This document shows, piece by piece, positions 1 through 62,180 of a stretch of DNA of 64,000 nt; position 1 is the stretch's first letter; every line of letters begins with the position of its first letter. The DNA is taken from NCBI GenBank assembly GCA_001779925.1, contig MFEK01000014.1, positions 152,168-216,167 of the forward strand, read 5' to 3'. This DNA is from Candidatus Doudnabacteria bacterium RIFCSPHIGHO2_01_FULL_46_14. Lineage in GTDB: Bacteria > Patescibacteriota > Doudnabacteria > UBA920 > 2-01-FULL-46-14. The notes under the pieces are model-generated. The model made no database searches and was not told the DNA's origin. It was given only the letters and a program-made list of their open reading frames with translations. Made by a program: the position numbers and the translations under genes.

Positions 1-2777
1 CGAGTGTTTCGACCAAGCTCAACATAAAAAACGCCAAACGGCAGGTGCAAAGTTGGGGCGTAGGTTTTGATTGGTCGCGCGAGATAAATACCACTGATCC
101 GGAATATTACAAATGGACACAGTGGATTTTCCTGCAGTTCTACAAAGCGGGACTCGCGTACGAAGCCGCGGGGCTTATCAACTGGTGTCCGCAGGACAAA
201 ACAGGACTCGCGAACGAAGAGGTGATAGACGGCAAATGCGAACGTTGCGGAACAGTGGTTGAGAAAAAAGAACTGCGCCAATGGTATCTGAAAATCACAG
301 CGTACGCCGAAAAGCTTCTTGAGGGATTGAAAAATCTTCCCGAATGGCCGGATCAGGTCAAGCTCCAGCAGGAAAACTGGATCGGGAAAAGCGAGGGCGC
401 GGAAATTGATTTTCCATTATTTGTTATTCCGGCCGCCGAGCCGGAATCCAGTCCGCCTCAGGCGGATGGATCCCGAAGACCCAAGTCCGGGATGACAAAC
501 TTTTTAATTCTCCATGGGTACACGGGCTCGGCAGGCAGGAATTTTATACCCTGGCTGAAAACAGAGCTTGAAAAACAGGGTTATAAAGTGCAAACACCTG
601 AGCTGCCGAATTCTGATGACCCAAAAGAATCTGAGCAGGTTGATTATATTTTAAAAAAATGCAGCATTGATGAGAATACGATTATAGTTGGTCATAGCCT
701 TGGCTGTATAGTCGCCATGAAAGCCCTGCAAAAATACGGAAAATCCGTTAAGGGGTTAATATTGCTGGATGCGGCCGTAGATCCTGCGTTTTCTGGCGCT
801 ACGCCTCGACCGTTCCACAAGAATTTTTCCTGGAATTTCGACTACGAAAGGTTAAAAAAATACGCACCTGCGCGGACCATACTTTCAGATTTAAAAGAGG
901 GCGAGCCGCGGGTGGGATATCTGAAAACTTTATCAAAGAAACTGGATGCGCAATTGATAACTGGGCGATCAACGGAGAATCACTTCACAGCTGAGCGAGA
1001 ACCATTGGTGTTAGAAATTCTCACCCCTCCCTCAATCCCTCCCCATCAAGGGGAGGGAAGAGGGGAAGGGATAAAAATTTTTACCACCAGGGTTGATACT
1101 TTACCAGGTGCGACCTTTATTGTAATTGCCCCGGAGCACCCTCTTATACAGAATTTTGCCTCAAGGATTTCGAATTTCAGCGAGGTGAGTAAATATATCG
1201 AGGAGGCAAAAAAGAAAACTGATATTGTCCGCTCCGCCAGGGACAAAGAAAAAACCGGGGTGGAATTGAAAGGTGTTAAAGTGGTTAATCCGGTTAATGG
1301 TGAAAAATTGCCGATTTGGGTTGCGGACTATGCTTTGATGGATTTTGGCACAGGCGCGTTATTTGGCGATGCGCACGACGAACGCGATCAAGCATTCGCC
1401 AAGAAATATAAAATTCCTTTAAAAGTAACTCTGAAGCCTGCAAACGGACGCGATGATTCAAAAATTCGGAATTTAGAAGAAGTCTTTATCGATGATGGTG
1501 TTTTGTATAATTCCGGAGAGTTCGATGGTCTATCTTCTGAAGAGGCTCGAAAAGTAATAACTAAATGGTTGGTAGATAAAAAATCAGGACGAGCGACTGT
1601 TTCTTACAAACTCCGCGATTGGGTGTTTTCCAGGCAGAGATATTGGGGCGAGCCGATTCCTATCATTCACTGCCCTGCGTGCGGAATAGTACCAGTACCG
1701 GAAAAAGATTTGCCGGTTCGGCTTCCGAACGTGAAAAAATATGAACCAACCGGAACAGGGGAATCGCCGCTCGCCGCGATAGACAAATGGGTGAAAGTGA
1801 AATGTCCAAACTGCAAAGGCCCAGCCAAACGCGAAACCAATACCATGCCGCAGTGGGCCGGCAGCTCTTGGTATTATTTGCGATACACTGACCCGAAAAA
1901 CAAGAACGAATTGGCAGATGATGAATTGATGAAACATTGGCTGCCGGTTGATGTGTATTTTGGCGGCACGGAACATACGACGCTTCACCTTTTGTATTCG
2001 CGTTTTTGGAATTTGTTTTTGCATGATCAGGGAATCGTGCCGGTAAGCGAGCCGTATACAAAGCGCGTGCCGCACGGGATTATTCTCGCCGAAGACGGGG
2101 AGAAGATGAGCAAAAGCCGGGGCAATGTAGTGAACCCTGATGAAATTGTGAACATATACGGCGCAGACACTTTGCGGATGTATGAGCTATTTTTGGGACC
2201 GCATGGGCAGACTGTTAGTTGGCATAGTCGCGGGATAATCGGTGTAAGGAGATTTTTGGAGAAAGTTTGGCGTCTCGCAAGCATAAAAGAATCATCAACA
2301 TCGCGGATTCAGAGTGATAAATTAGAGAGCATTATTCACAAGACTATTAAAAAAGTTACCGACGATATCGAAAATTTTCGTTTTAACACTGCGGTATCCG
2401 CACTGATGATTTTGGCGAATGAAATGGAAGGAAAACAAGTAAGCAAAAATGACATAACAAGACTGTTGAAATTATTAGCTCCATTTGCCCCCCATATGGC
2501 CGAAGATCTGTGGCGCGAATTGGGAAACAAAGTTTCAATTCATCTCGCACAGTGGCCGGAACATGATCCTGCTTTAGCTAAAGATGAATTTGTAAATGTT
2601 GCAGTGCAGATCAATGGCCGGGTTCGGGATACAGTGCGGATTGCAGTCGCGGCCAGCGAAGCCGAAGCAAGAAATTTTGCAGAAGCAAGCTCCCAAGTTC
2701 AAAAGCATCTGGTCGGTAAGCAAGTTGGGAAATTTATTTATATTCCCGGAAAAATTATTAATTTCGTCGTGAAATAA
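1..2777 (+). CDS. leuS: Leucyl-tRNA synthetase, 5'-truncated by the window edge; carries an inserted alpha/beta-hydrolase domain before the CP1 editing domain
   Basis: The frame is open from nt 3, so the N-terminus lies upstream of the window. Class-I LeuRS motifs are present: GFDWSRE, WCPQD, the CP1 entry motif FTTRxDTL, a KMSKS-like MSKSRGN, and a conserved C-terminal region. An extra stretch of about 220 aa lies between EGAEIDF and IFTTR. Confidence 0.9.
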   Translation, partial: SVSTKLNIKNAKRQVQSWGVGFDWSREINTTDPEYYKWTQWIFLQFYKAGLAYEAAGLINWCPQDKTGLANEEVIDGKCERCGTVVEKKELRQWYLKITAYAEKLLEGLKNLPEWPDQVKLQQENWIGKSEGAEIDFPLFVIPAAEPESSPPQADGSRRPKSGMTNFLILHGYTGSAGRNFIPWLKTELEKQGYKVQTPELPNSDDPKESEQVDYILKKCSIDENTIIVGHSLGCIVAMKALQKYGKSVKGLILLDAAVDPAFSGATPRPFHKNFSWNFDYERLKKYAPARTILSDLKEGEPRVGYLKTLSKKLDAQLITGRSTENHFTAEREPLVLEILTPPSIPPHQGEGRGEGIKIFTTRVDTLPGATFIVIAPEHPLIQNFASRISNFSEVSKYIEEAKKKTDIVRSARDKEKTGVELKGVKVVNPVNGEKLPIWVADYALMDFGTGALFGDAHDERDQAFAKKYKIPLKVTLKPANGRDDSKIRNLEEVFIDDGVLYNSGEFDGLSSEEARKVITKWLVDKKSGRATVSYKLRDWVFSRQRYWGEPIPIIHCPACGIVPVPEKDLPVRLPNVKKYEPTGTGESPLAAIDKWVKVKCPNCKGPAKRETNTMPQWAGSSWYYLRYTDPKNKNELADDELMKHWLPVDVYFGGTEHTTLHLLYSRFWNLFLHDQGIVPVSEPYTKRVPHGIILAEDGEKMSKSRGNVVNPDEIVNIYGADTLRMYELFLGPHGQTVSWHSRGIIGVRRFLEKVWRLASIKESSTSRIQSDKLESIIHKTIKKVTDDIENFRFNTAVSALMILANEMEGKQVSKNDITRLLKLLAPFAPHMAEDLWRELGNKVSIHLAQWPEHDPALAKDEFVNVAVQINGRVRDTVRIAVAASEAEARNFAEASSQVQKHLVGKQVGKFIYIPGKIINFVVK

Positions 2778-3451
2778 TGCAGGCTGTAATATTGGCTGCA
2801 GGATTCGGCACGCGAATGGGCGAGTTGACCAAAACCACGCCGAAGCCTCTTCTAAAAATCGGGAATAAAACCATTCTCGAACATAATCTTGAACAGCTTC
2901 CGGAAGAAATCGAAGAGGTGATTTTGGTTACTGGTTATTTGGGTGGACAAATTAAAAAAGCGATCGGGAATAATTTTGCGGGTAAAAAAATCACCTATGT
3001 AGATCAAAAAGAACTAAAGGGAACTGCTCACGCGCTTTATCAGAGCAAAGATTTGATTCGCGGGCGGTTTTTGGTGCTCATGGGCGATGATCTATATCAC
3101 AAACGCGATCTGGAAAAGCTTATTAAATATCCCCTGGCGATTCTTGTATGGCAGCTGCAAAATGGTGAAAGCGGGGAGGACCGGCACGCAATCGTGAAGG
3201 TCGATGAGGCTGGGGAACTTAGTGATATTGTCGAGCGACAACCTGCAAGAGAAGGGTCCCTAGTTAACACAGCGGCCTATATTTTAAATCAGAATTATTT
3301 CAACTACCCACTCGTTGGCGCTGGCATACCCGCGAAAGAATTTGGATTGCCTCAGACATTTTTGCAGATGGTTCGCGATGGCGCAAAATTTGCCGTAGTT
3401 CCTGCGGAAAAATGGCACAAGGTTGCTTCTCCTGAAGATTTAAAATTGTAA
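2777..3451 (+). CDS. Sugar-phosphate nucleotidyltransferase (NTP-transferase domain protein)
   Basis: The N-terminus MQAVILAAGFGTRMGELTKTTPKPLL matches the G-x-G-T-R nucleotidyltransferase signature. The ATG overlaps the leuS stop. Confidence 0.7.
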   Translation: MQAVILAAGFGTRMGELTKTTPKPLLKIGNKTILEHNLEQLPEEIEEVILVTGYLGGQIKKAIGNNFAGKKITYVDQKELKGTAHALYQSKDLIRGRFLVLMGDDLYHKRDLEKLIKYPLAILVWQLQNGESGEDRHAIVKVDEAGELSDIVERQPAREGSLVNTAAYILNQNYFNYPLVGAGIPAKEFGLPQTFLQMVRDGAKFAVVPAEKWHKVASPEDLKL

Positions 3452-3500
3452 TTCCCATTTTTGACGCAATTGCGTATATTTTGGGAATGATTTTATATTT

Positions 3501-4214
3501 ATGAATAAAGAACAAATAAGAATTGCTATTAATTACGTTAAAAATGGAAAGGCGGTGGTGTTTCCCACGGATACCGCCTATGGTCTTGGCGTGGATGCGA
3601 CGAACTCGAAAGCAGTAATGAGATTATTTAAGATTAAGAAGCGACGACCGACAAAACCGGTGCATATTGTAGTTTCAGGATTCGCAATGGCGAAGCGTTA
3701 TGCCAAGTTTTCGCCGCAGGCAGAGAAATTATTTAGAAAGTTTTTACCGGGAAAATTGACTTTGATTTTACCGTTCAAACCCCCTCCCTCCAGCCTTCGC
3801 GCGAGGCTACGGCGGACGCGGTCAGTCCCTCCCCAGATGGGGGAGGGAAGTTCATATCGAACTCTTTCCGCTGGCACCGGCACAATTGGTATCCGCATGC
3901 CGAAAGACAAGATTGCTCTGGGATTGGTGAAAAAATTGGGCAGGCCGATTACGGCAACCAGCGCCAATATATCCAGCGCGCCGACAGCTTATTCTGTTTC
4001 GCAAATAAAATGGCAGTATCGCAATAAAAAATTGAAACCGGATTTTTACCTGGATGGTGGAAAACTAAATAAGGTCAGGCCATCCACTATGGTAAGATTA
4101 ACTGGTAGCCGAATTGAAATTCTCAGACGCGGGCCGATAACCAAGAAGCAAATACTAAAATGTATCATTTCCGTTTCCCCCAATATTTCTCAATCTCGCC
4201 GAACCGCGAAGTAA
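3501..4214 (+). CDS. tsaC: L-threonylcarbamoyladenylate synthase (YrdC/Sua5 family), with an in-frame insertion of about 20 aa encoded by a palindromic repeat
   Basis: YrdC motifs are present: VVFPTDTAYGLG, KxRxxxKP and TSANxS. Relative to E. coli YrdC, an extra segment PPPSSLRARLRRTRSVPPQMGEGSS is encoded by the GC-rich palindrome at 3780-3850. Confidence 0.75.
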   Translation: MNKEQIRIAINYVKNGKAVVFPTDTAYGLGVDATNSKAVMRLFKIKKRRPTKPVHIVVSGFAMAKRYAKFSPQAEKLFRKFLPGKLTLILPFKPPPSSLRARLRRTRSVPPQMGEGSSYRTLSAGTGTIGIRMPKDKIALGLVKKLGRPITATSANISSAPTAYSVSQIKWQYRNKKLKPDFYLDGGKLNKVRPSTMVRLTGSRIEILRRGPITKKQILKCIISVSPNISQSRRTAK

Positions 4215-4258: not shown

Positions 4259-5317
4259 ATGGTTTTTATTTTCGAGCCGATCTATCTCTATACCCTCGGC
4301 TACAGCCTCATAAAAATCATGGTGTTTTATCTCATGCTTTATGCCTGGTACCTGGTGCTGATCGGCTTTGGTGCGAAATTTGCCAGCCGTTTCGGATACA
4401 AACACTCGATTTTTTTGTCTACCATTTTTTTTGTCCTGTTTTGGTTCGCGCTTTATTTTACAAAAATCCATCCTTTTCTTTTTTATGTCGCGCCTTTTTT
4501 ATTCGCGATGCAAAAATCCTGGTTTTGGCCGGCGTATGATACTGACATGTCGCTTTTTTCCGCTAAGACTCAGCGCGGGCGCGAGGTGGGTGTGCTTTTC
4601 TCTTTGGTGCAAATTGCGTTTATCGCCGGCCCGTTTCTAGGTGGCATGATTTCGGAAAATTTCGGTTTTATGACCCTCTTTGTTTGCTCCTCGATATTAA
4701 TGATTCTCTCCGCGTACCCGCTCTTTTCCAGTCCGGAAATCTATTCGCCTCATCAATTCCGATTCACCAATCTCTGGAAAATGTTTCGGCTTTATCCTTC
4801 CAATTTTTTCGGCTATTGGGGTTATGCCGAGGATTTGATGCTTATGAGTTTGTGGCCGATCTTTATGTATACGGTTGTCGGTGATTTTCAGAGTATGGGC
4901 TTTATTACGACCATTGCGACCATAATCGGAACTGTTATAATGCTCTATGTGGGCAAGCTTATTGACCGCCGCGGCCACAGGCACCGACTCATCGAAAAAT
5001 CCGCCATAGTGTACGGGGTGACCTGGGTTTTGCGGTTTACCGCAAAAGTTCTCCCAATCGTTTTGTTGTTTGATATTTTGACCAAGACTGCCAAGAATAT
5101 CGTGGACGTGCCTATGTATTCTGTTACTTTTGAGAGAGCCTCCGAGCGCGACCCGGATCATGCCATCGCTTATAGCGTATTTTACGAATTCAGCTCGTCA
5201 GTTGGTAAGGTTATCACAGCTCTCGGGGCGATCGGTATTCTTGCCTGGACTGGAAACATTTTTTACGTTTTTGCTTTTGCTGGAGTCTTAACAATGTTTT
5301 ACGGGTTTCTCAAGTAG
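4259..5317 (+). CDS. Multi-pass membrane protein, MFS-transporter-like
   Basis: The whole ORF is strongly hydrophobic with about 10 predicted TM segments. The ORF-track start at 4160 overlaps tsaC; the internal Met at 4259 is the more likely start, but this is uncertain. Confidence 0.5.
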   Translation: MVFIFEPIYLYTLGYSLIKIMVFYLMLYAWYLVLIGFGAKFASRFGYKHSIFLSTIFFVLFWFALYFTKIHPFLFYVAPFLFAMQKSWFWPAYDTDMSLFSAKTQRGREVGVLFSLVQIAFIAGPFLGGMISENFGFMTLFVCSSILMILSAYPLFSSPEIYSPHQFRFTNLWKMFRLYPSNFFGYWGYAEDLMLMSLWPIFMYTVVGDFQSMGFITTIATIIGTVIMLYVGKLIDRRGHRHRLIEKSAIVYGVTWVLRFTAKVLPIVLLFDILTKTAKNIVDVPMYSVTFERASERDPDHAIAYSVFYEFSSSVGKVITALGAIGILAWTGNIFYVFAFAGVLTMFYGFLK

Positions 5318-5502
5318 CGACCCTAATTTACGAATCACATCCGAATGTCACGAATAAAGATCAAAAAACTGAATTTGAAAATACTGCCCTTTGTGTGAAA
5401 CAATCTCGCAACCCTCGCCCGTAATCGGGAGAGGGGGGAACTCCGATCCAGATCGGGGGTGGGTGAGGGTTTGGGGGGTAATATTATTAAATTTGAATCA
5501 AC

Positions 5503-6837
5503 ATGAAATATGAAGCACTAAAAAAAGAGGATCCGGAGATTTATGGTCTGATCCAAAAAGAAGCGAGGCGACAAAAAGAGGGTTTGGAAATGATTCCCTC
5601 GGAAAATTATGCTTCGTCCGCGGTTCTTGAAGCAATGGGTAGCATCCTCAACGTTAAATATGCTGAAGGCTATCCGGGAAAAAGATATTATGGAGGCAAC
5701 ATTTACATTGACGAGATTGAGAGGCTTTGCCAGAAGCGGGCACTCAAGGCGTTTGGGGCCGAAGGTTATCACGTCAATGTTCAGCCGCTTTCGGGAAGCC
5801 CGGCAAACCTGGCCGTGTATTTTGCGCTGCTCACACCCGGGGACACGATAATGTCACTCAAGCTCGATCACGGTGGACATCTCACGCATGGTTCCCCGAC
5901 GAATTTTTCCGGAAAAAATTATAACTTCGTCTTTTATCCTGTCGATCCGAAATTGGAAACACTTGATTATGACGTGATTGAAAAACTCGCGGCCGAACAC
6001 AAGCCGAAAATTATCCTTTCCGGTTATACGGCTTATCCGCGGAGCATCGATTTCGAGCGTATCGCAAAAATCGCCAAGCAAGTCGGAGCGATTTCTATGG
6101 CTGATATCTCACATATTTCGGGCCTGATCGTCGGCGGGGTTCATTCGTCACCGTTTCCATACACCGACGTGGTCATGACCACCACTCATAAAACTCTCCG
6201 TGGTCCGCGGGCGGCCATGCTTTTTTGCCGCGAGGAGTTCAAAGATCAGATCGATAAAGCCGTATTTCCCGGTATGCAGGGCGGTCCCCACGAGCATACG
6301 ATCGCCGGTATCGCTGTTGCTCTGCGCGAGGCGATGACAGATGGATTCAAAGAGTATGTGGCACAGATCTTGAAAAACGCTACAACCTTGGCCAAAAGTC
6401 TGCAGGGCCAGGGTTTGAAGCTTGTCACTGACGGGACTGATAATCATTTGATGTTGATCGACCTGCGGCCGTTTGCCGCAGGGAGTGGAATTTTCGTGGA
6501 AAAAGCTCTCGAAGAAGCGGAAATCAGCGTAAATAAAACCACAGTACCGAATGACCCGATGCCGCCGTACTATCCTTCCGGCATCAGATTAGGGCCGCCG
6601 GCTTTGACCAGCCGGGGTATGAAAGAGCAAGAAATGGAGCAAGCTGGTAAATTGATCGCGCGAATTGTCAAAGAGTTCGCAAAAATCAAATTGCCGGAAG
6701 AGAAAGAAAAACGCGCAGCATCCGTCAAAGAATTCTCAGCCAAGCTCGCGGATAACTCCTTGATTAAAGAGGTTAAATCACAAGTCATTGAACTTGCTAG
6801 TAAATTTCCCGTTCCGGGAATAGATTTACCCCATTAG
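5503..6837 (+). CDS. glyA: Serine hydroxymethyltransferase
   Basis: Full-length SHMT with the motifs SENY, YPGKRYYGG and the PLP-site HKTLRGPR. Confidence 0.95.
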   Translation: MKYEALKKEDPEIYGLIQKEARRQKEGLEMIPSENYASSAVLEAMGSILNVKYAEGYPGKRYYGGNIYIDEIERLCQKRALKAFGAEGYHVNVQPLSGSPANLAVYFALLTPGDTIMSLKLDHGGHLTHGSPTNFSGKNYNFVFYPVDPKLETLDYDVIEKLAAEHKPKIILSGYTAYPRSIDFERIAKIAKQVGAISMADISHISGLIVGGVHSSPFPYTDVVMTTTHKTLRGPRAAMLFCREEFKDQIDKAVFPGMQGGPHEHTIAGIAVALREAMTDGFKEYVAQILKNATTLAKSLQGQGLKLVTDGTDNHLMLIDLRPFAAGSGIFVEKALEEAEISVNKTTVPNDPMPPYYPSGIRLGPPALTSRGMKEQEMEQAGKLIARIVKEFAKIKLPEEKEKRAASVKEFSAKLADNSLIKEVKSQVIELASKFPVPGIDLPH

Positions 6838-7965: not shown

Positions 7966-10425
7966 ATGTACGAGATGAATGATTATCTAAAACAATCCGG
8001 ATATCTTGGCGCGGCTCATTTGGAAAAAATATTTCCACGGCAGATCACTGCTGTCATGACAACCGTGTGCTTGGTAGCGGTTCTGGCTTGCGCTGTCATT
8101 GCGGTTATTTTGGGCAGCAAGTCTTTGTTCACAGTTGCGCTACTGCTGCTAGTTTTATTTTATTTTCTGGCAGCTTATTTCTTGTTTACAAATTTTTTGC
8201 AGGAAGATCGCAGTCTTAGCGCGAATGAAATCGCAGAGGCGCGTGCGGCAAAAAAGCTTGGCATGATTTTAAATTTCTCAGCTGTTCAGGTTTTGGAGAC
8301 AAGCGTGCAAGGGAATACTCTAAAGCTCTATGATTTTTTTAATCATACATTCAAGCTTCCGGAATTTGTCTGGATTTTACGCCGGCTGAACATTCTGCCT
8401 CAGGATTTTCAAAAAAGAGTTTTGATGAGCTGTGATACAAACTCAACCATGCTGATGACAGACGTGCTCGAAACTGCCTGGCAAATAGCCTTGTCGGCAA
8501 ACCATCTGAATATCAGCGAGTACGAGATTCTGGCCGCAGTTTACGAGCTTGATAAGAATTTTCAAAAAGTTCTTTTTAGTTTTGAGGCAGAACAGAAAGA
8601 TTTTTTCGAAGTGATATATTGGAGGCGCAGAAAAGACTTAGAGACGAAAATCAGGCGTCTCGATATCAAAGGCATTGGCAAAGATTGGTCAGGCGGATAT
8701 ACGGTTCAGCTCGACGAAACTGCGACAGATATAACAGCGGCTCTGGAAACCAGGCGCGTACCTTCGCATTTATACGGACAAAGCGCCAATCTTGAGCTTT
8801 TACAGCGAATGCTGGTGCGCGGAGCGGGATCCAGCAATGTCGTGCTGGTGGGACCGCCCGGCGTGGGTAAACATCATTTGATCGACGCTCTAGCGGAGCT
8901 CATCAATTCCGGGCAGACGTTCCCGTCCCTTCGTTATATGAGGCTGCTGCAAATCGATTCTTCCTCTCTTATTGCCGGCACGCTTTCGCCAAACCAGATT
9001 CTCTCTAAAATTGGAGCATTATTTATGGAAGCGTACGCCGCCGGAAACGTGATATTGGTGGTCAATGATATTGACGCGCTTCTTGATTCGGGACGGGACG
9101 CCGTGGGGCGCGTTAACGCCACGGAAGCGTTGCTGCGCTTTTTCCAGTCCAGCTTGCATATAATTGGTCTTACGACGCCTAGCGGATACCAAAATACAAT
9201 TGGTCGTAATCCCATGTTGCAAAAACTTATTGCCAAGCTGGAGCTTGATGAGCCGACGAACGCTGAGACCCTGATGATTTTGCAGGACCACGCGGTCCAA
9301 TTGGAAAGGGATTCAGGCTTATTTTTCACGCACCAGGCTTTGCAACAAATCGTGTTGCTTGCAGGCAAGCTGATCCAAAACCTGCCCAATCCGGAAAAGT
9401 CTCTTGAAGTGCTTTCCGAAACTGCGGTTTACGTTGCGGTTGATATTTCGTCACGGATCGTTTTGCCGGAGCATGTGCAGCATGTGGTTGCTGAGAAAAC
9501 CAAGGTTCCCGTGGAAAAAATTTCCATGGGAGAAAAAGATAAACTTCTAAACCTTGAGGAGATTTTGCATCGCAGGATAATTGGCCAGGATGAGGCTGTT
9601 AGGGAGCTCGCCGATTCTCTGCGGCGTGCACGGTCAGGCATTCGTTCCGAGAAAAAACCAATCGGTAGTTTTCTTTTCTTGGGGCCGACCGGCGTTGGCA
9701 AAACCGAAACTACTAAGGCGCTCGCGGAAACATATTTTGGCGACTATTCAAAGATCCTACGCTTTGATATGTCAGAATTTCAGGAAATTCATGCACTGAA
9801 CCGGCTCATTGGCGATGCTGATACCGGAACAGGCGGTCTGCTCACCGAGCAGGTCGTCGCAAATCCGTTTTCGTTGGTACTTCTTGATGAGCTGGAAAAA
9901 GCTCATCCCAAGATTCTCGATTTATTTTTGCAGGTTCTCGATGACGGCATCCTTACGGATTTTTTGGGCAGGAAAATCAGTTTTATTAACACCATGATAA
10001 TTGCGACCTCGAACGCCGGCTCGGAGATGATCCGCAATATAGTGAAAGAAGGGAACGACCCTCAGGCTTTCCGTGAACAGATTTTAGGCTCCTTGCAGAG
10101 CCAAAATATTTTCCGTCCGGAATTTCTAAATCGTTTTGACGGAGTGGTAATTTTCAAACCGCTCTCCCCGGAAGATCTCCTTCGTGTGGCTGGATTGCTT
10201 CTTGCCGAACTAAACAGCAGGCTGGCGGAAAAAGAGATTCAGGTCGAGATAACAGACGAGCTTTGTCAGACTGTAGTTTCCGGCGGTTATCAGCCCGAAT
10301 TTGGCGCGCGGCCCCTGCGGCGCTACATTCAGGAGCATTTGGAAAATTTTGTCGCCCGCGGCCTCATTGACGGCTCAATCAAAAAAGGCGATACGATAAG
10401 AATTGATCCGGGTCAATTGTCTTGA
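7966..10425 (+). CDS. Clp/Hsp100-family AAA+ ATPase (ClpB/ClpC-like) with an N-terminal transmembrane anchor and a degenerate first nucleotide-binding domain
   Basis: Two AAA modules are present. D2 is canonical: RIIGQDEAV, GPTGVGKTE, LLDELEKAH, a sensor region and ATSNAG. D1 has GPPGVGKH in place of GKT and VVNDID in place of the hhhhDE Walker-B motif. The first roughly 75 aa are hydrophobic (TM). There is no long M-domain coiled coil and no IGF loop. Confidence 0.8.
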   Translation: MYEMNDYLKQSGYLGAAHLEKIFPRQITAVMTTVCLVAVLACAVIAVILGSKSLFTVALLLLVLFYFLAAYFLFTNFLQEDRSLSANEIAEARAAKKLGMILNFSAVQVLETSVQGNTLKLYDFFNHTFKLPEFVWILRRLNILPQDFQKRVLMSCDTNSTMLMTDVLETAWQIALSANHLNISEYEILAAVYELDKNFQKVLFSFEAEQKDFFEVIYWRRRKDLETKIRRLDIKGIGKDWSGGYTVQLDETATDITAALETRRVPSHLYGQSANLELLQRMLVRGAGSSNVVLVGPPGVGKHHLIDALAELINSGQTFPSLRYMRLLQIDSSSLIAGTLSPNQILSKIGALFMEAYAAGNVILVVNDIDALLDSGRDAVGRVNATEALLRFFQSSLHIIGLTTPSGYQNTIGRNPMLQKLIAKLELDEPTNAETLMILQDHAVQLERDSGLFFTHQALQQIVLLAGKLIQNLPNPEKSLEVLSETAVYVAVDISSRIVLPEHVQHVVAEKTKVPVEKISMGEKDKLLNLEEILHRRIIGQDEAVRELADSLRRARSGIRSEKKPIGSFLFLGPTGVGKTETTKALAETYFGDYSKILRFDMSEFQEIHALNRLIGDADTGTGGLLTEQVVANPFSLVLLDELEKAHPKILDLFLQVLDDGILTDFLGRKISFINTMIIATSNAGSEMIRNIVKEGNDPQAFREQILGSLQSQNIFRPEFLNRFDGVVIFKPLSPEDLLRVAGLLLAELNSRLAEKEIQVEITDELCQTVVSGGYQPEFGARPLRRYIQEHLENFVARGLIDGSIKKGDTIRIDPGQLS

Positions 10426-15687: not shown

Positions 15688-16239
15688 GTGGACAAGCCAG
15701 AGTTCAGAGTTTTTATTGTTTTGGGAAGTGAGACGGATGATAAAATTTTAATTGAGTCCAAAATGACCGATATGCTGGATGCGGTCGGTTTGTATTGGGA
15801 AGTATGGATAGCTTCATCTCATCGGCACCTTCGAGAGCTCACAGAAGCGATTAACCTTAACAAGAGAACCTCGCAAGCCGCTAAATCAATCTTCGTTTCT
15901 GCAGCCAGCATGTCTGCTGCGTTACCAGGCGTGATGGAAGCAATCCTTGAAGGCGGTTGGCCGGTTATTGGCATAGCTTTGCCTTCGCCAGAGTTTCCCA
16001 ATGCCATGGATGCACTGCTTTCCATGGTGAGAATGCCGGGACGAATGCCAGTGATGTGCGCTGGCATTGGAAAATCCGGGTTCGTAAACGCCGCTACGAT
16101 CGCGTGTCAGCTTGTCGCATTTGCCGACTCGGATTTCGTAGGAGTTTTGGAAAGGAATCAACGGGATGCAAGCGAGGAAAAGCCGGCGAAAATCCCACTG
16201 CGTATTTCAACAAGAGTAATCCCAGGAGGAGGCGAGTGA
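15688..16239 (+). CDS. purE: PurE-family (N5-)carboxyaminoimidazole ribonucleotide mutase/carboxylase
   Basis: PurE motifs are present: VLGSETD, SSHRHL and AASMSAALPGV. The start codon is GTG. Confidence 0.7.
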   Translation: MDKPEFRVFIVLGSETDDKILIESKMTDMLDAVGLYWEVWIASSHRHLRELTEAINLNKRTSQAAKSIFVSAASMSAALPGVMEAILEGGWPVIGIALPSPEFPNAMDALLSMVRMPGRMPVMCAGIGKSGFVNAATIACQLVAFADSDFVGVLERNQRDASEEKPAKIPLRISTRVIPGGGE

Positions 16240-16362: not shown

Positions 16363-16428
16363 TTTTCGTTAATTAAATTATTTGAAACTCCAAGCAATTG
16401 CCGGGTTTTTAAATATGTTTATGTTTGT

Positions 16429-16543
16429 GTAAAATTCGCGCGGCCACGCGAATTTTACACTTGGGGTTCAAAATTTCTATTGTACAATTCTAGCGAATTG
16501 TACAATGTCCGCAGTCAACGGCTCAAATCTGTTTGAGCCGTTG
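16429..16543. promoter_or_regulatory. Three consecutive perfect palindromes upstream of parB (candidate centromere/operator sites)
   Basis: GTAAAATTCGCG-N6-CGCGAATTTTAC at 16429-16458, TTGTACAATTC-N4-GAATTGTACAA at 16480-16505, and CAACGGCTCAAA-N4-TTTGAGCCGTTG at 16516-16543. Confidence 0.45.
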
Positions 16544-16583
16544 AATTGCTCTTTGCCAGTATTTTTGATAAGTTTAATTCACT

Positions 16584-17642
16584 ATGCCAGACGATGTTTT
16601 TAAATTGGGCAATTTCGAGGATTTAACCGGTTCGGACATGAAGGACGAGTTTGATAAATTCGACAAGCTCGACCAGGACATGTCGCAGGAGGTGGCCGCG
16701 GATATGCAGAGGATTGAGGATAGGCTGGAGGAGGCAGATTCTACACCTCCCGGCCATACGGTCATTCTCCCCTCTGACAAGGAGAGGGAAACAAGGAATG
16801 TAACTTTGCATTCAAAGATCAAAGCTGATCCGCAGGCCAAGTTTCGCTCGCCCTGGGACGGCCAGGCTCTTTTGGAAATAGATGTCAATAATATCGTGCC
16901 CAATGAATTTCAGCCGCGACGGATATTCAATCCCGAAAAACTTCAGGAGCTGGCGGAATCCATAAAAGAACACGGCATCATCCAGCCGATGGTTGTGACA
17001 GAGCGTGATGACGGCAAATACGAAATCCTTGTGGGGGAACGGCGGTTTCGCGCCTCCAAGCTGGCAGGACTCACGAAAGTCCCCGCTTTGGTCTCGCCAA
17101 AGATTAACGCAGAGCAGAAATTAGAAATCGCGCTTATTGAAAACGTCCAGCGCGCAGAGCTCAATCCCATTGAAGAAGCAAAGGCTTATGAGAGGCTGAT
17201 TAACGAATTTGGCTTGAAGGTTATTGATATTGCCAAACGCGTAGGTAAAAATCAATCGACTGTGTCGAATTTACTCCGCTTGCTTAACCTCCCTGTTGAG
17301 GTTCAGCGTGCGCTTATTGAGGAGAAAATCGCTGAGGGTCAAGCCCGGCCGCTCTTAACGCTGCGCGATAAAGAAGAGATGCTGGAAATGTTCAAGGTCG
17401 TTATGCGAGAGGGGATGAAGGTTCGGGACATCGAGGCCAAGGTTCGCGAGATTTCCCGGCGTAAAATCAAAGTGCGGGAAATGTTCACAGCAGACCCTTT
17501 CCTGACCTCGCTTGAGAACATGCTCCGAGGCAAGCTCGGTACTCGCGTTGAGGTCAGCAAAGGCGCAAAAGGCGCGGGTAGAATTACTATTGAGTTTTTC
17601 TCAGATGAAGAATTGAATAATATTGTGGGAAAAATTTCTTGA
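16584..17642 (+). CDS. parB: ParB/Spo0J-family partition protein with an acidic N-terminal extension; no adjacent parA
   Basis: ParB box motifs GERRFRAS and ENVQR, and an HTH segment KNQSTVSNLLRLL. Confidence 0.8.
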   Translation: MPDDVFKLGNFEDLTGSDMKDEFDKFDKLDQDMSQEVAADMQRIEDRLEEADSTPPGHTVILPSDKERETRNVTLHSKIKADPQAKFRSPWDGQALLEIDVNNIVPNEFQPRRIFNPEKLQELAESIKEHGIIQPMVVTERDDGKYEILVGERRFRASKLAGLTKVPALVSPKINAEQKLEIALIENVQRAELNPIEEAKAYERLINEFGLKVIDIAKRVGKNQSTVSNLLRLLNLPVEVQRALIEEKIAEGQARPLLTLRDKEEMLEMFKVVMREGMKVRDIEAKVREISRRKIKVREMFTADPFLTSLENMLRGKLGTRVEVSKGAKGAGRITIEFFSDEELNNIVGKIS

Positions 17643-17645
17643 TTT

Positions 17646-17736
17646 AATTTCCCCTCCTCATGAGGAGGGGCAGGGGAGGTCTGTGATTGCTCTGCGACCC
17701 CCTCTTAATCTCCCCCTCATGAGGGGGAGAAAACGG
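17646..17736. repeat. GC-rich double-hairpin repeat element (copy 1, directly after the parB stop)
   Basis: Contains the hairpins CCCCTCCTCATGAGGAGGGG and CTCCCCCTCATGAGGGGGAG. It is about 80% identical to 62091-62180. Confidence 0.7.
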
Positions 17737-18009
17737 ATTGAGATTGTGTTTATACCCTGTTTATATCTTGTGGAAAAGCTGTGAATTTGTGCTTGACGCC
17801 TCTCCTTGCTGCTGTTAATATTGCCATCAGAGATTAACTAATAGCGCAGAATGAAAGAGTTTCGCCACATTGTAGTCGCTACCCGCAAGCCGAGCATTCT
17901 CGGTCTTGTTGAGTTTCGGCTGCATTATCGCGGAACCTAAAATCTTAGCTAAAAGCTAATCCCGCAGCAAAAACCAAGGTTCCGCCAAAAGCGGAATTTT
18001 GGTTAATAT

Positions 18010-18081
18010 GACGAGATAGTTCAATTGGTAGAACGGCGGCTTCCAAGCCGTAGGTTGTAGGTTCGATGCCTGCTCTCGTCG
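18010..18081 (+). tRNA. tRNA with a non-canonical anticodon loop: probably Trp(CCA), alternatively Gly(UCC)
   Basis: A perfect 7-bp acceptor stem GACGAGA/TCTCGTC, a tRNA-Trp-like D-arm TAGTTCAATTGGTAGAAC and a T-arm GTAGGTTCGATGCCTGC. The anticodon region GGCGGCTTCCAAGCCGT folds only with a 6- or 8/9-nt loop. Confidence 0.6.
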
Positions 18082-18199
18082 TTCAAGCAGTACATCTCAC
18101 CCCTAAAGGAGGACAAATTTAGTTTCGAGAAAGAAGTATTCGCACTGCCCAGCAACATCGGGTTCACGTTAACATTCGAAAGTAGGATTAGCAGGGCTT

Positions 18200-19055: not shown

Positions 19056-19132
19056 GGTATAAAAATGATAAAATGACGAAGTCATTCTCGCGAAAGTGGG
19101 AATCCATCTCCTGATCGCAGTCGAGGACAAGT

Positions 19133-19161
19133 CTGGATTCCGGATCAAGTCCGGAATGACA
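19133..19161. repeat. 29-bp hairpin repeat CTGGATTCCGGATCAAGTCCGGAATGACA (copy 1)
   Basis: Identical 29-mer to 33515-33543; contains the hairpin TTCCGGA-N5-TCCGGAA. Confidence 0.8.
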
Positions 19162-19265: not shown

Positions 19266-20453
19266 ATGAGCAAATACTTAGCAGATTATGGAGATAACAC
19301 AAATTTCGTGGACGGCGAAGGTTGTTTTTTGATTGATAAGAATGGTAAAAAATATATTGATTTTCTCGGCGGGTGGTGCGTTTCCACGGTAGGCTGGAAG
19401 CATCCGAAAATGATGGAGGTCTTGCAAAGCACGGGGAATCGCGGGTTCTATATCCCTCCTTCTTACAGTTGGCCGGAATGGGAGAGTTTTGCAAAACTTT
19501 TGGCAGATATCACACCTGGTAAATTGCAAAAAGTATTTCGCACAACGTCTGGATCAGAAGCAGTGGAGATGGCCATAAAAATTGCGAGAGCCGCAACTGG
19601 CAGAAAAAAAATCGTCTCTATTGATGAGGAGTACCATGGTCATACATACGGCGCGTTATCAGTCGGCTCGGCTTTGACCTCTGCTATTGCTCCAGGCGTG
19701 CCGGAGATGCTCAAGCTTCCGCTGCCGAACGTGGGCAACGCCGAGGACGTAATCGCGCAGTTTGAAAAAATAGCCAGTGCCGGAGATCTGGCCGCCTTTC
19801 TGGGCGAGCCGGTTTTTACGAACAGTGGTACATTTGTTCCCCCGGCAGATTTTTACCCGCGCATTGCTGAGATTTGTAAACAAAACGGCACCCTGTTCGT
19901 CATGGATGAGGTGGCAACCGGCTTTGGCAGAACAGGAAAATTGTTTGCCTCCGAGCATTGGAATCTCGAGCCAGACATTATGTGTCTGGCAAAAGGTTTT
20001 TCCGGCGGGTATGCAACCATTGGCGCTACCATTGTTACCGAGGAGGTGGCAAATAGAGTTTTTGAAAAAGGCGGATATTTTCCGTATTACTCGACCTTTG
20101 GGTGGATGCCTGATGATATGATTATAACCCGCAAGAATGTTGAGCTGGTTTGCGAGCTGAAACTTTGGGAAAACGCGGAATCGGTCGGAAAATATTTACT
20201 GACACTGCTCAAGCCACTCGAGGATCTCGCGAAAGTCAAAGAGGTCAGAGGTATCGGCATGTTGTTTGCTATTGAGCTAAAAGATAAAAGTTTAACAGGG
20301 AAGATTTCTTCTGAAGTTTTAAAAAATGGTCTGGTGGTAGATACTGCTTCACCGGAAATTTTATTTTTCAGCCCGCCGCTGATCATGGATAAGGAAACTG
20401 CGACAAAAGGCGCGAGGATTTTATCGGAAGTAATTAAAAAACACTGCTCATGA
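19266..20453 (+). CDS. Class-III PLP-dependent aminotransferase
   Basis: Motifs EEYHGHT, DEVATGFGRTGKLFA and the PLP-lysine context CLAKGFSGG. Confidence 0.8.
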   Translation: MSKYLADYGDNTNFVDGEGCFLIDKNGKKYIDFLGGWCVSTVGWKHPKMMEVLQSTGNRGFYIPPSYSWPEWESFAKLLADITPGKLQKVFRTTSGSEAVEMAIKIARAATGRKKIVSIDEEYHGHTYGALSVGSALTSAIAPGVPEMLKLPLPNVGNAEDVIAQFEKIASAGDLAAFLGEPVFTNSGTFVPPADFYPRIAEICKQNGTLFVMDEVATGFGRTGKLFASEHWNLEPDIMCLAKGFSGGYATIGATIVTEEVANRVFEKGGYFPYYSTFGWMPDDMIITRKNVELVCELKLWENAESVGKYLLTLLKPLEDLAKVKEVRGIGMLFAIELKDKSLTGKISSEVLKNGLVVDTASPEILFFSPPLIMDKETATKGARILSEVIKKHCS

Positions 20454-21652
20454 GAAATAAGATTATAATTGCAATATTAGGATTAGTAGTCGCAGGAATG
20501 GTTGCATACAAGATAACCTCCCTCAGCCATGTTCCTTCCCGAGGAGGGGAGAAGGAGGGAGCCGCGGAGTCTGTTCAGGATTTTGTAAATCAAACTTTCG
20601 TGGATAACAGGGGGGCGGATGTTGCGACTTCGACAACCCCCTCCCAACCCTCACACCGGCCGAATACAGCCGATCCCTCTCCCGAACCGGGAGAGGGTAA
20701 TAATGTTGCCGGTGCTGTGTGCACCGGCGCTGAACAGTCGGACTTTGATTGCTACCAGCTCTATTATCAGGGCATTGTCAAAGATCAGGGCTTGGCCATA
20801 GCTTTCGCAGATTTGCGTAAACGCTATGGCGAGAACAGTTATGTGCAGTCCCAATGCCACCCCTTAACGCACGTCATCGGCAATGAGGCTGCCAAAAAAT
20901 TCGCAGATGTGGCCGATGCATACGCGCAAGGCGATGCGTTTTGCTGGTCAGGTTATTATCACGGCGTACTCGAAGGAATCATCGGCCGAATTGGCCTCGG
21001 GAAACTCAATTCGCAAATGGATGATATCTGTAAATCGCTAGCGCAAAAAAGCCGTTATTCTTTTGACCATTACAACTGCGTGCACGGTTTAGGTCATGGG
21101 GTTATGGCAATTTATGATAATGAGCTATTTGAATCACTCGAGGTTTGCGATAAAGTCTCGGACAGCTGGGAGCGTTCTTCCTGCTGGAGCGGGGCGTTTA
21201 TGGAAAACGTAATCGTGGATAATAAATACCATTTTTCAAAATATTTGAAACCTGAGGATCCGCTTTATCCGTGCAATGCCGTGGGCGAGAATTACCGCGG
21301 AATCTGCTACCTCATGCAGACCTCATACATGCTCAAGGTCACCAACGGCGATTTTGCGCGGGTTTTTGAGCTGTGTTCCACAGTGGAAGAAATTCACCGC
21401 AATACCTGTTACCAGAGCCTTGGTCGTGATGTGTCAGGTCGCAGTCTTTCCAATGTCGCGCAGACCAAACTCAACTGCGGTCTCGGCAAAACCATAGATC
21501 AGCGGGAGCACTGCATCATTGGCGCGGTGAAAGATTTCATTTCATATCTGCATGATGATGTGCGCGCCAAAGAGCTTTGCGAGGTCATGGACGAGCAAAA
21601 ATTAAAAGACACCTGCTACAGTACCGCAGACTCGTACTACAAACTTTTTTGA
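20450..21652 (+). CDS. Secreted/membrane-anchored cysteine-rich protein with three internal domain repeats
   Basis: An N-terminal TM/signal segment, a Pro/Ser-rich linker, and three roughly 80-aa repeats each carrying C..H..G and C.S/W patterns. Confidence 0.5.
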   Translation: MRNKIIIAILGLVVAGMVAYKITSLSHVPSRGGEKEGAAESVQDFVNQTFVDNRGADVATSTTPSQPSHRPNTADPSPEPGEGNNVAGAVCTGAEQSDFDCYQLYYQGIVKDQGLAIAFADLRKRYGENSYVQSQCHPLTHVIGNEAAKKFADVADAYAQGDAFCWSGYYHGVLEGIIGRIGLGKLNSQMDDICKSLAQKSRYSFDHYNCVHGLGHGVMAIYDNELFESLEVCDKVSDSWERSSCWSGAFMENVIVDNKYHFSKYLKPEDPLYPCNAVGENYRGICYLMQTSYMLKVTNGDFARVFELCSTVEEIHRNTCYQSLGRDVSGRSLSNVAQTKLNCGLGKTIDQREHCIIGAVKDFISYLHDDVRAKELCEVMDEQKLKDTCYSTADSYYKLF

Positions 21653-22827
21653 AGGCGGCGGCGAAACCGCCATTCGTTGAGAAAATCCGCGAACAGAACA
21701 GTGAGGCCGGCGACTATTGACTCGGTAGAGCCGATACCTGCCAAAACCCAGCCGTTATGCATGAGTCCTGAGAGCGCGCCTGCGATGCCCATGAAAGGAG
21801 CAAGGCCAGCTCCCAACAACAGCCCCAGCCGGGCAGGGTTGGTAAAGTCTTGGCGGAGGGCGAGCCGGGCCAAGGAAGTGTTTCTGTTGGTTACAACCTT
21901 TCCTTCAATGGAGAGTTTTTTTAGGTTGGATAAATACATGAAATAGGACTGGATTGCCGTGGTTAGAGACAAAGCCACAGCAGACAGACCAAAGACAACA
22001 CCTGCGAGGATTAGCCTATCATGCTCAATAAAGCCTTCCACGGAAAAAGCGCCCCATGTAGCCAGTGCAAATACCGGAATAAGTATGCGCGATCTTTTAG
22101 CGAGTTGTTTCCAGGTAAATCCGCTTCCGCGCAGGGCGGAAAGTTCTGCGGTTTCGCCTAAAAGGTCGTCAGCGCTAGCCGCAAAGATTTTGCCGATCCC
22201 AGCCGCGAATTTTTCCAGGATATGGGCAACAGGACCGATGATCAAAAGCGCTTTGATGATGCCCTGGGCAATGCGGGTGCGCTCGCGCGCGTTGTCCGCA
22301 ACTACGCGGAACACCGAATAATCGATCGCGAGCGGGTAAATTATCTCGGAAAGCTCGGTCATGAATTGCTGTTCGTTTGGGGTGATGCCGATGTTTTCTT
22401 CGTCAATGAGCACGAGTCTTTTAAATCGCAGACGGTCGCGCAATATCGTTTCGACTGCTTTTTCCAGATTTTCGCCGCGCTCATTGGCTGCTTCCAAATC
22501 CTGGCGTATAAAAACCGGGCGGTGCTTGCTGCGCAGAAGCTCCGGAAGCCAGGTGATGATGTAATTGCCCTGGCTATGGACGCTGATGGTATGCACGGCC
22601 TGTAGAATATTTTCCGGCGTCCGGAGCACTGTACGAACGCCTATCGCTTTGCCCTCAGAGAGGATTTTTTTAATCCGGGGCTGGTACTGCGGATATTTTC
22701 TGAGAATGTATTGAATCTCGATAGGCAGATCGATTTCAAAATCGAGTTCTTCCGGCAGAGAAACCACGTCCACGCGGTATGTTCCGGCAGGCGATATTTT
22801 TTTTGGTCTAGTGAAGCGTTCGAGCAT
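21637..22827 (-). CDS. Hypothetical protein with a soluble N-domain and a C-terminal multi-TM region
   Basis: A 396-aa ORF, hydrophobic over its C-terminal roughly 200 aa; no recognised family. Confidence 0.5.
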   Translation of the reverse strand: MLERFTRPKKISPAGTYRVDVVSLPEELDFEIDLPIEIQYILRKYPQYQPRIKKILSEGKAIGVRTVLRTPENILQAVHTISVHSQGNYIITWLPELLRSKHRPVFIRQDLEAANERGENLEKAVETILRDRLRFKRLVLIDEENIGITPNEQQFMTELSEIIYPLAIDYSVFRVVADNARERTRIAQGIIKALLIIGPVAHILEKFAAGIGKIFAASADDLLGETAELSALRGSGFTWKQLAKRSRILIPVFALATWGAFSVEGFIEHDRLILAGVVFGLSAVALSLTTAIQSYFMYLSNLKKLSIEGKVVTNRNTSLARLALRQDFTNPARLGLLLGAGLAPFMGIAGALSGLMHNGWVLAGIGSTESIVAGLTVLFADFLNEWRFRRRLQKSL

Positions 22828-22938
22828 TTACCCGCCTAAATTTCCTGAATAAGTTGATGGAAAATTTTGATCATTGTATCTTTGTAAATTGCCCCGCCCC
22901 TCAAATTAAATCGCAAGGAAATTTTGGAGGGTAAATCA

Positions 22939-22960
22939 AATACCCCGTTAAACGGGGTAT
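22939..22960 (-). terminator. Terminator hairpin after rpmB
   Basis: ATACCCCG-TTAA-ACGGGGTAT, a perfect 8-bp stem flanked by A and T tracts. Confidence 0.5.
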
Positions 22961-27219: not shown

Positions 27220-27227
27220 TTAAACCT

Positions 27228-27285
27228 CTCTCCCGTCCCTCGGTAAGCTCGGGACGGCACTCTCTCCTCGTCAGGAGAGAGTAAT
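27228..27285. repeat. Double-hairpin GC-rich element between rpsG and fusA
   Basis: CCGTCCCTCGG-TAAGC-TCGGGACGG and CTCTCTCCTCG-TC-AGGAGAGAG. Confidence 0.5.
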
Positions 27286-30337: not shown

Positions 30338-30437
30338 AAACAATGGATTCATTGAACGCGGTGCCACAATGCCCGCGTTTTTTTCACCCTTGTACCGCAC
30401 TTTAACCGATCGCGTAAACTGCAGTATATCCTAGCTA

Positions 30438-30475
30438 CCCTGCCAGTAATCCTCGGCCGAGGATTACTGGCAGGG
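30438..30475. repeat. 38-bp perfect palindrome with no spacer: CCCTGCCAGTAATCCTCGG|CCGAGGATTACTGGCAGGG
   Basis: Read directly from the sequence: two exact 19-bp reverse-complement arms with no spacer. Confidence 0.9.
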
Positions 30476-30494
30476 TGTTCCTGCAAAATCTTGG

Positions 30495-31481: not shown

Positions 31482-31492
31482 ATAGAGTTTTG

Positions 31493-33262: not shown

Positions 33263-33514
33263 AAAACGACTTCCAATCCTAGCATATTTTTGCGGTTTTG
33301 TCGAGCGGGGCTCCATCCTTCATAATCTCCCCCTTATCATGGGGGAGAGAACAGCGGAACATCAAAAAACCCGCCTAATTGGCGGATTGGGATTTTTGGG
33401 CACAGAGTATTATTTTACTCCTTTTTGGCGGTATTGTCAATACTCGAGTTGCTGCTTTTGGCTTAGATAAGCGAAAAGGGAACTTTATTTTGGCTAGGGT
33501 TAGCCAAAAGATGC

Positions 33515-33543
33515 CTGGATTCCGGATCAAGTCCGGAATGACA
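33515..33543. repeat. 29-bp hairpin repeat (copy 2)
   Basis: Identical to 19133-19161. Confidence 0.8.
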
Positions 33544-62090: not shown

Positions 62091-62180
62091 TAATTTCCCC
62101 TCCTTATGAGGAGGGGTTAGGGGAGGTCAAAGTGATTCGCTATGACCCCCTCTCAATCTCCCCCTCATGAGAGGGAGAAG
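62091..62180. repeat. GC-rich double-hairpin repeat element (copy 2, directly after the tktC stop)
   Basis: About 80% identical to 17646-17736. Confidence 0.7.

Follow-up and report, generated by a model that had tools for sequence, protein, structure and literature searches.

Probable REP-like palindromic repeats of two families between and within genes of a Candidatus Doudnabacteria genome

How do GC-rich palindromes come to lie in-frame inside conserved housekeeping genes of a bacterium that leaves little space between its genes? The question is raised by a 64-kb stretch of Candidatus Doudnabacteria DNA (the window, meaning the whole stretch analysed here), which is gene-dense, about 89% coding and about 47% GC. 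Genomes of the candidate phyla radiation (CPR) measure about 1 Mb, are about 90% coding and have little intergenic space. TsaC and the product of open reading frame 20450-21652 have homologues that assign the window to Candidatus Doudnabacteria, within Patescibacteria/CPR; the latter protein is 100% identical to one from a Doudnabacteria RIFCSPHIGHO2_01_FULL metagenome-assembled genome. An earlier note on this DNA flagged a region that spans three genes, leuS, a nucleotidyltransferase gene and tsaC, and took a hairpin common to leuS and tsaC for a mobile palindromic element comparable to the Rickettsia palindromic elements (RPEs). In our analysis, the coding copies and their intergenic counterparts are probably miniature repeats of the repetitive extragenic palindromic (REP) kind, belonging to two families, of which some would have landed in-frame and be translated. 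All copy counts given for this genome are counts within the window.

The hairpin in leuS and tsaC is a perfect 9-bp polypyrimidine/polypurine (Py/Pu) stem, TCCCTCCCC-N5-GGGGAGGGA. It reads TCCCTCCCCatcaaGGGGAGGGA in leuS (TCCCTCCCC-atcaa-GGGGAGGGA, 1036-1058) and TCCCTCCCCagatgGGGGAGGGA in tsaC (TCCCTCCCC-agatg-GGGGAGGGA, 3826-3848), and in both genes it is preceded by the C-box CCCCTCCCTC (1024-1033 and 3781-3790), exactly as had been noticed. The exact hairpin has two matches in the window, against 0.00 expected from 100 dinucleotide shuffles. A scan for C-rich Py/Pu hairpins with a 9-bp stem and at most one mismatch returned ten, against 0.07 expected in third-order Markov controls. Three of the ten lie in genes, namely leuS, tsaC and the open reading frame (ORF) 20450-21652 (at 20675-20697); the other seven are intergenic (5412, 17651, 17709, 27259, 33326, 62097 and 62157). 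The hairpins at 19970 and 20708 were taken as ordinary coding sequence, and one in glyA (6462-6482) was rejected as an insertion because the alignment with the related locus L001 is gap-free at that place.

The copies in leuS, tsaC and ORF 20450-21652 and the seven intergenic ones share a family architecture, with stems of 8-10 bp. A type 1 unit consists of the C-box, 2-3 nt (usually YAA) and the Py/Pu hairpin; in a type 2 unit, a short GC hairpin stands between the two. Type 2 comprises the copies at 27225-27282, 5412-5469 (inverted) and 20637-20697, as well as the tsaC insert. The latter had been described as a hairpin with a flanking sequence; both are present, but the whole of 3780-3848 is one composite unit. 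In leuS, a 3' G-box pairs with the C-box and makes an extended hairpin (DNA fold z = -4.07). This copy aligns with the 3' half of an intergenic composite of about 100 nt which is present twice; such composites join two different hairpins, not two inverted identical units. No stop codon can occur in a homopurine or homopyrimidine arm, which is why single units are open in three to five of the six frames; the 80-nt composites are open in 0 to 2 only. The encoded peptides are Pro-rich and then Gly/Glu/Arg-rich; they are flexible, and this is one reason why the units are tolerated in genes. As the earlier note had it, the reading frame is kept: ORFs 45-2777 (leuS) and 3501-4214 (tsaC) read through their units and yield the peptides PPSIPPHQGEGRGEG and PPPSSLRARLRRTRSVPPQMGEGSS. 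Predicted peptides spanning insert junctions include LEILTPPSIPPHQGEGR and SVPPQMGEGSSYR.

Comparison with orthologues bore out the proposal that these segments are lineage-specific insertions. Loci of relatives were fetched through tsaC, and leuS was extracted from about 40 of them. In the syntenic loci L001/L003 (Doudnabacteria RIFCSPHIGHO2_01_48_18), LeuRS is 68% identical to that of the window and lacks exactly two of its segments, TPPSIPPHQGEGR (39 nt, with the Py/Pu hairpin) and FVIPAAEPESSPPQADGSRR (60 nt, at 422-497). Orthologue alignment places both at domain junctions, on either side of an alpha/beta-hydrolase domain. This domain precedes the editing domain and occupies one and the same insertion site in 20 of the about 40 related leuS genes. 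Among these 20, the Py/Pu insert at the 3' junction occurs in the window and in L004 (isolate nzgw378) and is absent from the other 18; at the 5' junction, six have an insert of any kind and 14 have none. Since most hydrolase-bearing orthologues are without them, the palindromes entered LeuRS after the hydrolase domain, at its two linkers. The idea that palindromes mediated the insertion of the domain was rejected, as most hydrolase-bearing orthologues have clean junctions. Between the window and L004, the orthologous Py/Pu hairpins differ in two of their nine pairs, and each change is fully compensatory. Such a pattern would fit correction of one arm by the other, replacement by a further member of the family or selection on structure, and does not separate the three.

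The hydrolase domain deserves mention in its own right. It covers about 480-1020 of the window (Pfam Abhydrolase_1 4e-11, Ser_hydrolase 9e-9) and is flanked by GAEIDF and IKIFTTR, at the entry to the connective peptide 1 (CP1) editing domain. The conserved motifs (HG, GHSxG, Asp and His) suggest that an aminoacyl-tRNA synthetase has here been fused with an active serine hydrolase; we know of no description of such a fusion in LeuRS. The domain is also found in L003, L004, L006, L010, L012-L015, L018 and L020, and further in L022, L025, L026, L028, L035, L036, L039, L043 and L044. In L008 (~8116-8643) and L030 (~8724-9335), tblastn places a hydrolase-like segment after, not before, the editing domain, which hints that LeuRS has a second site of insertion, independent of the first.

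In TsaC, inserts recur at one loop. CPR orthologues have a baseline of 17 aa between the bracketing motifs; the window sequence adds 20 aa, close to the 21 or so that had been estimated, and other lineages add 4 to 17 aa or more. In a tree built without the loop, insert-bearing and insert-free sequences are interleaved in at least seven sister pairs, and therefore gain and/or loss was repeated at this one loop. At the DNA level, the inserts of seven loci are all GC-rich, are predicted to form hairpins and differ in sequence. Their DNA-fold z values run from -1.7 to -6.5 and are strong in four of the six refolded, compared with about 0 for insert-free loops; the insert of L004 has a perfect 20-bp stem, and that of L006 is purine-first. 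All start at the same L-P-L codons (CCCCTC). The L004 insert, GACCCCCTCTCTTTCTCCCCCTCATGAGGGGGAGAAAG, is identical at 34 of 38 positions to the window's intergenic copy after parB. Furthermore, the intergenic unit of the window, when translated, gives RPPLNLPLMRGR, which is the peptide of the TsaC loop in other Patescibacteria (P0018, P0023, P0027, P0028, P0032). This match and the shared peptide are the strongest evidence for a single repeat family that appears as intergenic DNA in one genome and as coding DNA in another. In the AlphaFold model of TsaC (mean predicted local distance difference test score, pLDDT, 88.3), residues ~93-120 have block means of 49-69 and are flanked by a strand and a helix that are both modelled with confidence. 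Residues 93-119 are left out of alignments to solved Sua5/YrdC structures, where 6f89 has about five residues. The insert is thus modelled as a low-confidence loop and predicted to be disordered; together with the leuS copies at the junctions of the inserted domain, this agrees with the tolerated loop position that had been proposed.

The other leuS insert, at 422-497, carries the marks of a second family. According to Di Nocera et al. (2013, PMC3733652), REPs of the CGTC class have an unpaired CGTC, TGTC or CCTC head, a stem of 8-9 bp starting with AT, a loop of 4-5 nt and a CCA tail; the superfamily takes in RPE-4 and RPE-6, its intragenic members encode VIPAKAGIQ or ...PGMT-type peptides, and it is held to have no dedicated transposase. 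The fold of segment 422-497 (z = -5.35) has three hairpins and is closed by its GTYATYCCGG termini; its cloverleaf-like shape was considered as a tRNA, which ARAGORN rejected. The orthologous insert of L004 (6517-6585 of that locus) reads TGTC-ATTCCCGC-gcag-GCGGGAAT-CCA ... TGG-ATCCCGGG-tcaag-CCCGGGAT-GACA, encodes VIPAQAGIQDSDSGSRVKPGMT and is a textbook CGTC REP. The class signature was found in this insert, in 422-497 (heads TGTT and TGTC) and in the intergenic copies 19134-19161 and 33516-33543, and the peptides of 422-497 and of its L004 orthologue (VIPA..., ...GMT) match the published intragenic REP and RPE-4/6 type. By these marks, 422-497 is a CGTC-REP dimer, and the shared CGTC signature gives it a family-level link to RPE-4 and RPE-6. 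The RPE comparison of the earlier note, supported in general, thereby goes beyond analogy at this place. Held against miniature inverted-repeat transposable elements, 422-497 has the GTYATYCCGG termini, and no duplication is evident at the leuS junctions compared with L001 (these junctions only, with no systematic search).

A third coding copy had been placed at 20513-20560. This segment is present as written but weakly palindromic, and was dropped as an insertion because the linker is hypervariable in all homologues, with no clear length difference from them. A clean Py/Pu copy lies further on in the same ORF, with a perfect 10-bp stem at 20675-20697 that encodes PSPEPGEG; the unit 20637-20697 to which it belongs (DNA fold z = -4.96) is common only to the closest homologues. 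The features of both families and their host genes are collected in Table 1.

Table 1. Palindromic units of the window and the genes that carry them
Feature	Position	Strand	Details
Host gene leuS (5' end cut by window)	45..2777	+	alpha/beta-hydrolase domain inserted; REP inserts at its two junctions
CGTC-type REP tail-to-tail dimer in leuS (by signature)	422..497	+	TGTT-ATTCCGGC-loop-GCCGGAAT-CCA, central hairpin, TGG-ATCCCG...CGGGAT-GACA; encodes VIPAAEPESSPPQADGSRRPKSGMT; net 20 aa
Py/Pu REP-like unit in leuS	1024..1070	+	C-box 1024-1033, AA spacer, hairpin 1036-1058, G-box 1060-1070; encodes PPSIPPHQGEGRGEG; net 13 aa (39 nt)
Host gene tsaC (Sua5/YciO/YrdC family)	3501..4214	+	unit 3780-3848 in frame
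Composite type 2 unit in tsaC	3780..3848	+	C-box 3780-3791, GC hairpin region 3792-3825, hairpin 3826-3848; adds 20 aa
Intergenic type 2 unit, inverted	5412..5469	-	hairpin 5412-5435, GC hairpin, G-box GGGTGAGGG 5461-5469
Intergenic composite right after parB stop codon	17651..17730	+	hairpin A 17651-17670, G-box, spacer, C-box 17696-17705, hairpin B 17709-17730
Intergenic CGTC-like REP	19081..19106	+	GTCATTCTCGCGAAAGTGGGAATCCA; imperfect stem
Intergenic CGTC-type REP	19134..19161	-	TGTC-ATTCCGGA-cttga-TCCGGAAT-CCA
Host ORF, conserved Cys-rich CPR protein, no Pfam family	20450..21652	+	unit in linker after N-terminal transmembrane helix
Earlier-flagged third segment	20513..20560	+	weak, imperfect Py/Pu palindrome in hypervariable linker; not established as copy
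Type 2 unit in ORF 20450-21652	20637..20697	+	C-box 20637-20645, hairpin 20675-20697; encodes ...DPSPEPGEG
Intergenic type 2 unit	27225..27282	+	C-box 27225-27234, GC hairpin, hairpin 27259-27282
Intergenic Py/Pu unit	33313..33348	+	hairpin 33326-33348
Intergenic CGTC-type REP	33516..33543	-	identical to 19134-19161 copy
Second intergenic composite, after transketolase C-terminal subunit gene	62097..62178	+	83-94% identical to 17631-17731 (repeat families found)

Beyond the window, C-rich Py/Pu hairpins occur in 18 of the about 45 closest loci (L001-L045), including most of those from Doudnabacteria, and L039 has as many as eight per 20 kb. No such hairpin was seen in the 37 loci L046-L082, which are more distant and belong to archaea, to other CPR and to other bacterial lineages. 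By naive ORF calls, 29 of 45 hairpins fall within open frames, and many of these encode large conserved proteins. Among the matches listed, the exact window hairpin with the same flanks is found in more than 120 metagenome contigs of the Joint Genome Institute (JGI). It is also present in 67 IMG/VR contigs predicted to be viral or prophage (L204-L270, median GC 0.67), with the same C-box architecture and doublets. Again among the matches listed, contigs with the exact hairpin are mostly 60-72% GC (range 35-73%), and 70% of the metagenome copies have the C-box on exactly one side, adjacent or past a GC hairpin, which corresponds to types 1 and 2. The copies in L156 and L173 are almost identical to the one in leuS. 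Many metagenome copies are inverted doublets 55-115 nt apart, an arrangement seen in viral and Rhizobiales copies too, and a CGTC or CGCC head is present in 38 of 94 type 1 units (40%) from high-GC relatives among the matches listed. BLAST against plasmids and chromids assigned the high-GC form to Rhizobiales (Sinorhizobium, Rhizobium, Aminobacter, Methylobacterium); one Methylobacterium record carries it at 25 places, and in Aminobacter, the only rhizobial case examined, the unit lies between genes. The family of C-box, optional GC hairpin and Py/Pu hairpin is not CPR-specific. We call the unit REP-like because the Rhizobiales and metagenome copies often have the CGTC head and form inverted doublets.

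Some further features of the window were recorded on the way. Rfam at its gathering threshold gave three tRNAs for the whole window and no family for the palindromes; in E-value mode, the elements gave only sub-threshold, generic hairpin matches (microRNA-like), and no known RNA family fits. A tRNA gene at 18009-18082 (Rfam 58.6 bits) was left without an identity by ARAGORN, which returned a two-base anticodon call, '(cc)'; its anticodon loop may be unusual. Just upstream of parB, intergenic DNA at 16427-16544 holds three consecutive perfect AT-rich hairpins with stems of 14, 12 and 13 bp, unrelated to the GC-rich families. A perfect 18-bp hairpin lies at 30437-30476, and two terminator-like palindromes of 45 nt, 96% identical, flank the minus-strand ORF 30569-31483 (regions 30437-30542 and 31422-31466). 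Finally, a 108-nt direct repeat is found twice, 3 kb apart and 89% identical (37943-38050 and 40958-41065), with shorter relatives at 40497-40519 and inverted matches at 22823-22941.

Taken together, the analysis shows that the copies belong to repeats, that they are lineage-specific insertions, that one site can receive different sequences in different lineages, and that an element which is intergenic in one genome is intragenic in another. We propose that units of the main family (C-box, optional GC hairpin, Py/Pu hairpin of 8-10 bp) and CGTC-tagged REPs would have been scattered through the Doudnabacteria genome, for the most part shortly after the ends of genes. A smaller number would have landed in-frame at permissive spots of essential genes, that is, in the disordered TsaC loop, in two LeuRS domain linkers and in the linker of a membrane protein. 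There they would simply be translated and be tolerated for their stop-free arms and flexible peptides. Spread would proceed by a hairpin-dependent, single-strand copy mechanism, served either by a transposase of the Y1-HUH type, such as the REP-associated tyrosine transposases (RAYTs), or by housekeeping replication and repair, as is debated for CGTC REPs. For the host proteins, the units would be selfish or neutral. The mobile element proposed earlier is thus upheld as a dispersed family with lineage-specific copies; its mobility is deduced from distribution, and no transposase was found in the window.

Several observations weigh against this proposal. Searched by tblastn with nine RAYT/TIRYT sequences, the window gave no match, and genome coverage is the 64 kb alone. 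Matches were obtained in the relatives L023, L011 (81-614) and L032 (565-1113), those of the last two being to more distant homologues of Y1 transposases. The match in L023, a Patescibacteria contig rich in Py/Pu hairpins, is a RAYT-like Y1 (IS200-like) ORF with the Pfam domain Y1_Tnp (4952-5446), which has a tRNA gene on one side and parB on the other; what comes after the ORF is a palindrome of the GTAG type, GGTAGCCGAtaaaTCGGCTGACTAC, and not Py/Pu units. The window ORF at the same position (15688-16239) was tried as a RAYT-like gene and rejected, since it encodes aminoimidazole ribonucleotide (AIR) carboxylase. A target-site duplication was likewise not seen when the leuS junctions were compared with those of L001, which was not a systematic search. 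The window's Py/Pu copies share the 9-bp stem and the 5-nt loop with the CGTC class, but have neither its CGTC head nor its CCA tail; their heads are CTCT and AACT and their stems start with TC. That the inserts are translated would follow from intact frames. Lastly, perfect stems with compensatory differences between the window and L004 could mean selection on structure rather than neutrality.

This last point is at the heart of another explanation, in which the hairpins are functional nucleic-acid structures (mRNA stabilisers, terminator-like elements, pause or regulatory sites) kept by selection, with the peptides as by-products. It would account for the two compensatory pairs in leuS, for stems that remain perfect despite about 35% protein divergence, and for the position of the intergenic copies behind parB and the transketolase gene, 9-14 nt from the stop codon, the typical place of REPs thought to be RNA elements (PMC3733652); a Py/Pu unit follows parB in L023 as well. 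However, most leuS and tsaC orthologues are without a hairpin at these sites, so the genes do not require one, and no Rfam family matches. Different sub-families occupy one site in different lineages, so that replacement or re-insertion fits as well as covariation does, and intrastrand repair can match palindrome arms without selection. We regard this explanation as unlikely. Less likely again would be an independent local origin, in which Pro-codon-rich tracts became palindromes through template switching or fold-back errors of replication, without any mobile family. The shared CCCCTC start of the TsaC inserts could seed such events, hairpin sequences differ between lineages, and neither a target-site duplication nor a transposase was found in the window. 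Against it stand the multi-part architecture common to unrelated genes and intergenic DNA of the same genome, the 34/38 identity between the L004 tsaC insert and the window's intergenic copy, and the presence of the Py/Pu unit in Rhizobiales and many metagenome contigs. Finally, the segments could be ancestral or adaptive at the protein level, as interaction loops of LeuRS and TsaC for instance, with incidental palindromic DNA. They are indeed kept in-frame in essential genes, and the window and L004 have inserts at the same three sites; yet most orthologues, close ones included, do not have them, the peptides are not conserved between lineages, the TsaC segment is predicted to be disordered and identical DNA units occur in non-coding DNA. 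The orthologue alignments largely refute this explanation, to which we give hardly any credit.

If the copies are REP-like repeats as we propose, a wider and rather doubtful possibility is that they belong to a pan-bacterial REP superfamily, made and kept by a conserved host process without a dedicated transposase and with a preference for CCCCTC-like microhomologies. Units that are nearly identical have been met in Rhizobiales, in CPR, in IMG/VR contigs and in contigs whose GC content runs from 38 to 73% (38-73%). The recurrent insertions at the TsaC L-P-L codons and in the LeuRS linkers would then reflect targeting, and the process would generate new protein linkers and loops in gene-dense CPR genomes.

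In-frame palindromic selfish DNA is still seen as a speciality of Rickettsia and a handful of REP-rich bacteria, and a 2024 review still treats RPEs as an exceptional case (PMC10969869). The present data would extend it to the CPR. Three findings stand out: the recurrent hot spot in TsaC, the intergenic/coding pair, and a unit shared nearly base for base between CPR and Rhizobiales. The TsaC loop offers a natural series of independent insertions in one enzyme, and with the other two makes the questions of how REPs move and how new protein segments arise more tractable. In practical terms, the inserts lengthen proteins and produce spurious "low-complexity" regions in CPR annotations and alignments. 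Our literature search returned nothing relevant on palindromic or REP elements in CPR/Patescibacteria, nor on the Py/Pu and C-box unit under that description.

Among known systems, the RPEs (Ogata et al. 2000, 2002; summaries in PMC10969869 and PMC3733652) are multi-copy palindromes found, like the window units, between genes and in-frame in conserved housekeeping genes, where they are translated as extra segments compatible with the fold; the latter text also records intragenic REPs and RPEs in tRNA synthetase genes. In the window, the ten Py/Pu hairpins, with three intergenic CGTC-type REPs and the leuS dimer (two units), likewise amount to a many-copy palindromic repeat in one genome, and alignments reveal in-frame copies absent in orthologues twice in leuS and once each in tsaC and ORF 20450-21652. 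The host, however, is a CPR bacterium from a free-living environment and not Rickettsia, the units measure 28-77 nt compared with about 150 bp for RPE-1, and the main family is a Py/Pu hairpin with a C-box, for which no homology to RPE sequences was seen and none was searched for. For this family, the comparison is best taken as an analogy with partial sharing of signatures. The CGTC REPs (PMC3733652) have in common with 422-497, 19134-19161, 33516-33543 and the L004 leuS insert the TGTC head, an 8-bp stem starting with AT, a loop of 4-6 nt, the CCA tail and the dimer organisation. High-GC relatives of the Py/Pu unit share with this class the CGTC/CGCC head, the 9-bp stem and the 5-nt loop. 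That survey lists five phyla; in its available text, CPR is not among them and the additional C-box (G-box) module of the window's Py/Pu copies is not found. REPINs and their RAYTs (Bertels & Rainey 2011, PMC3116915) resemble the metagenome and Rhizobiales copies in that short hairpins form inverted doublets 55-115 nt apart, and the Y1/RAYT-like gene on the related hairpin-rich contig is a candidate link to the Py/Pu units; the window, in contrast, has neither a RAYT nor units with a GTAG tag. Rhizobial repeats, lastly, comprise RIMEs, Sm-repeats and A/B/C palindromes, which are mentioned in PMC2573895. Doublets of Py/Pu hairpin and C-box likewise occur in rhizobial replicons, extragenic in the one case examined (Aminobacter), unlike the coding copies of the window, and the Py/Pu and C-box unit may be the same as one of the named rhizobial repeats.

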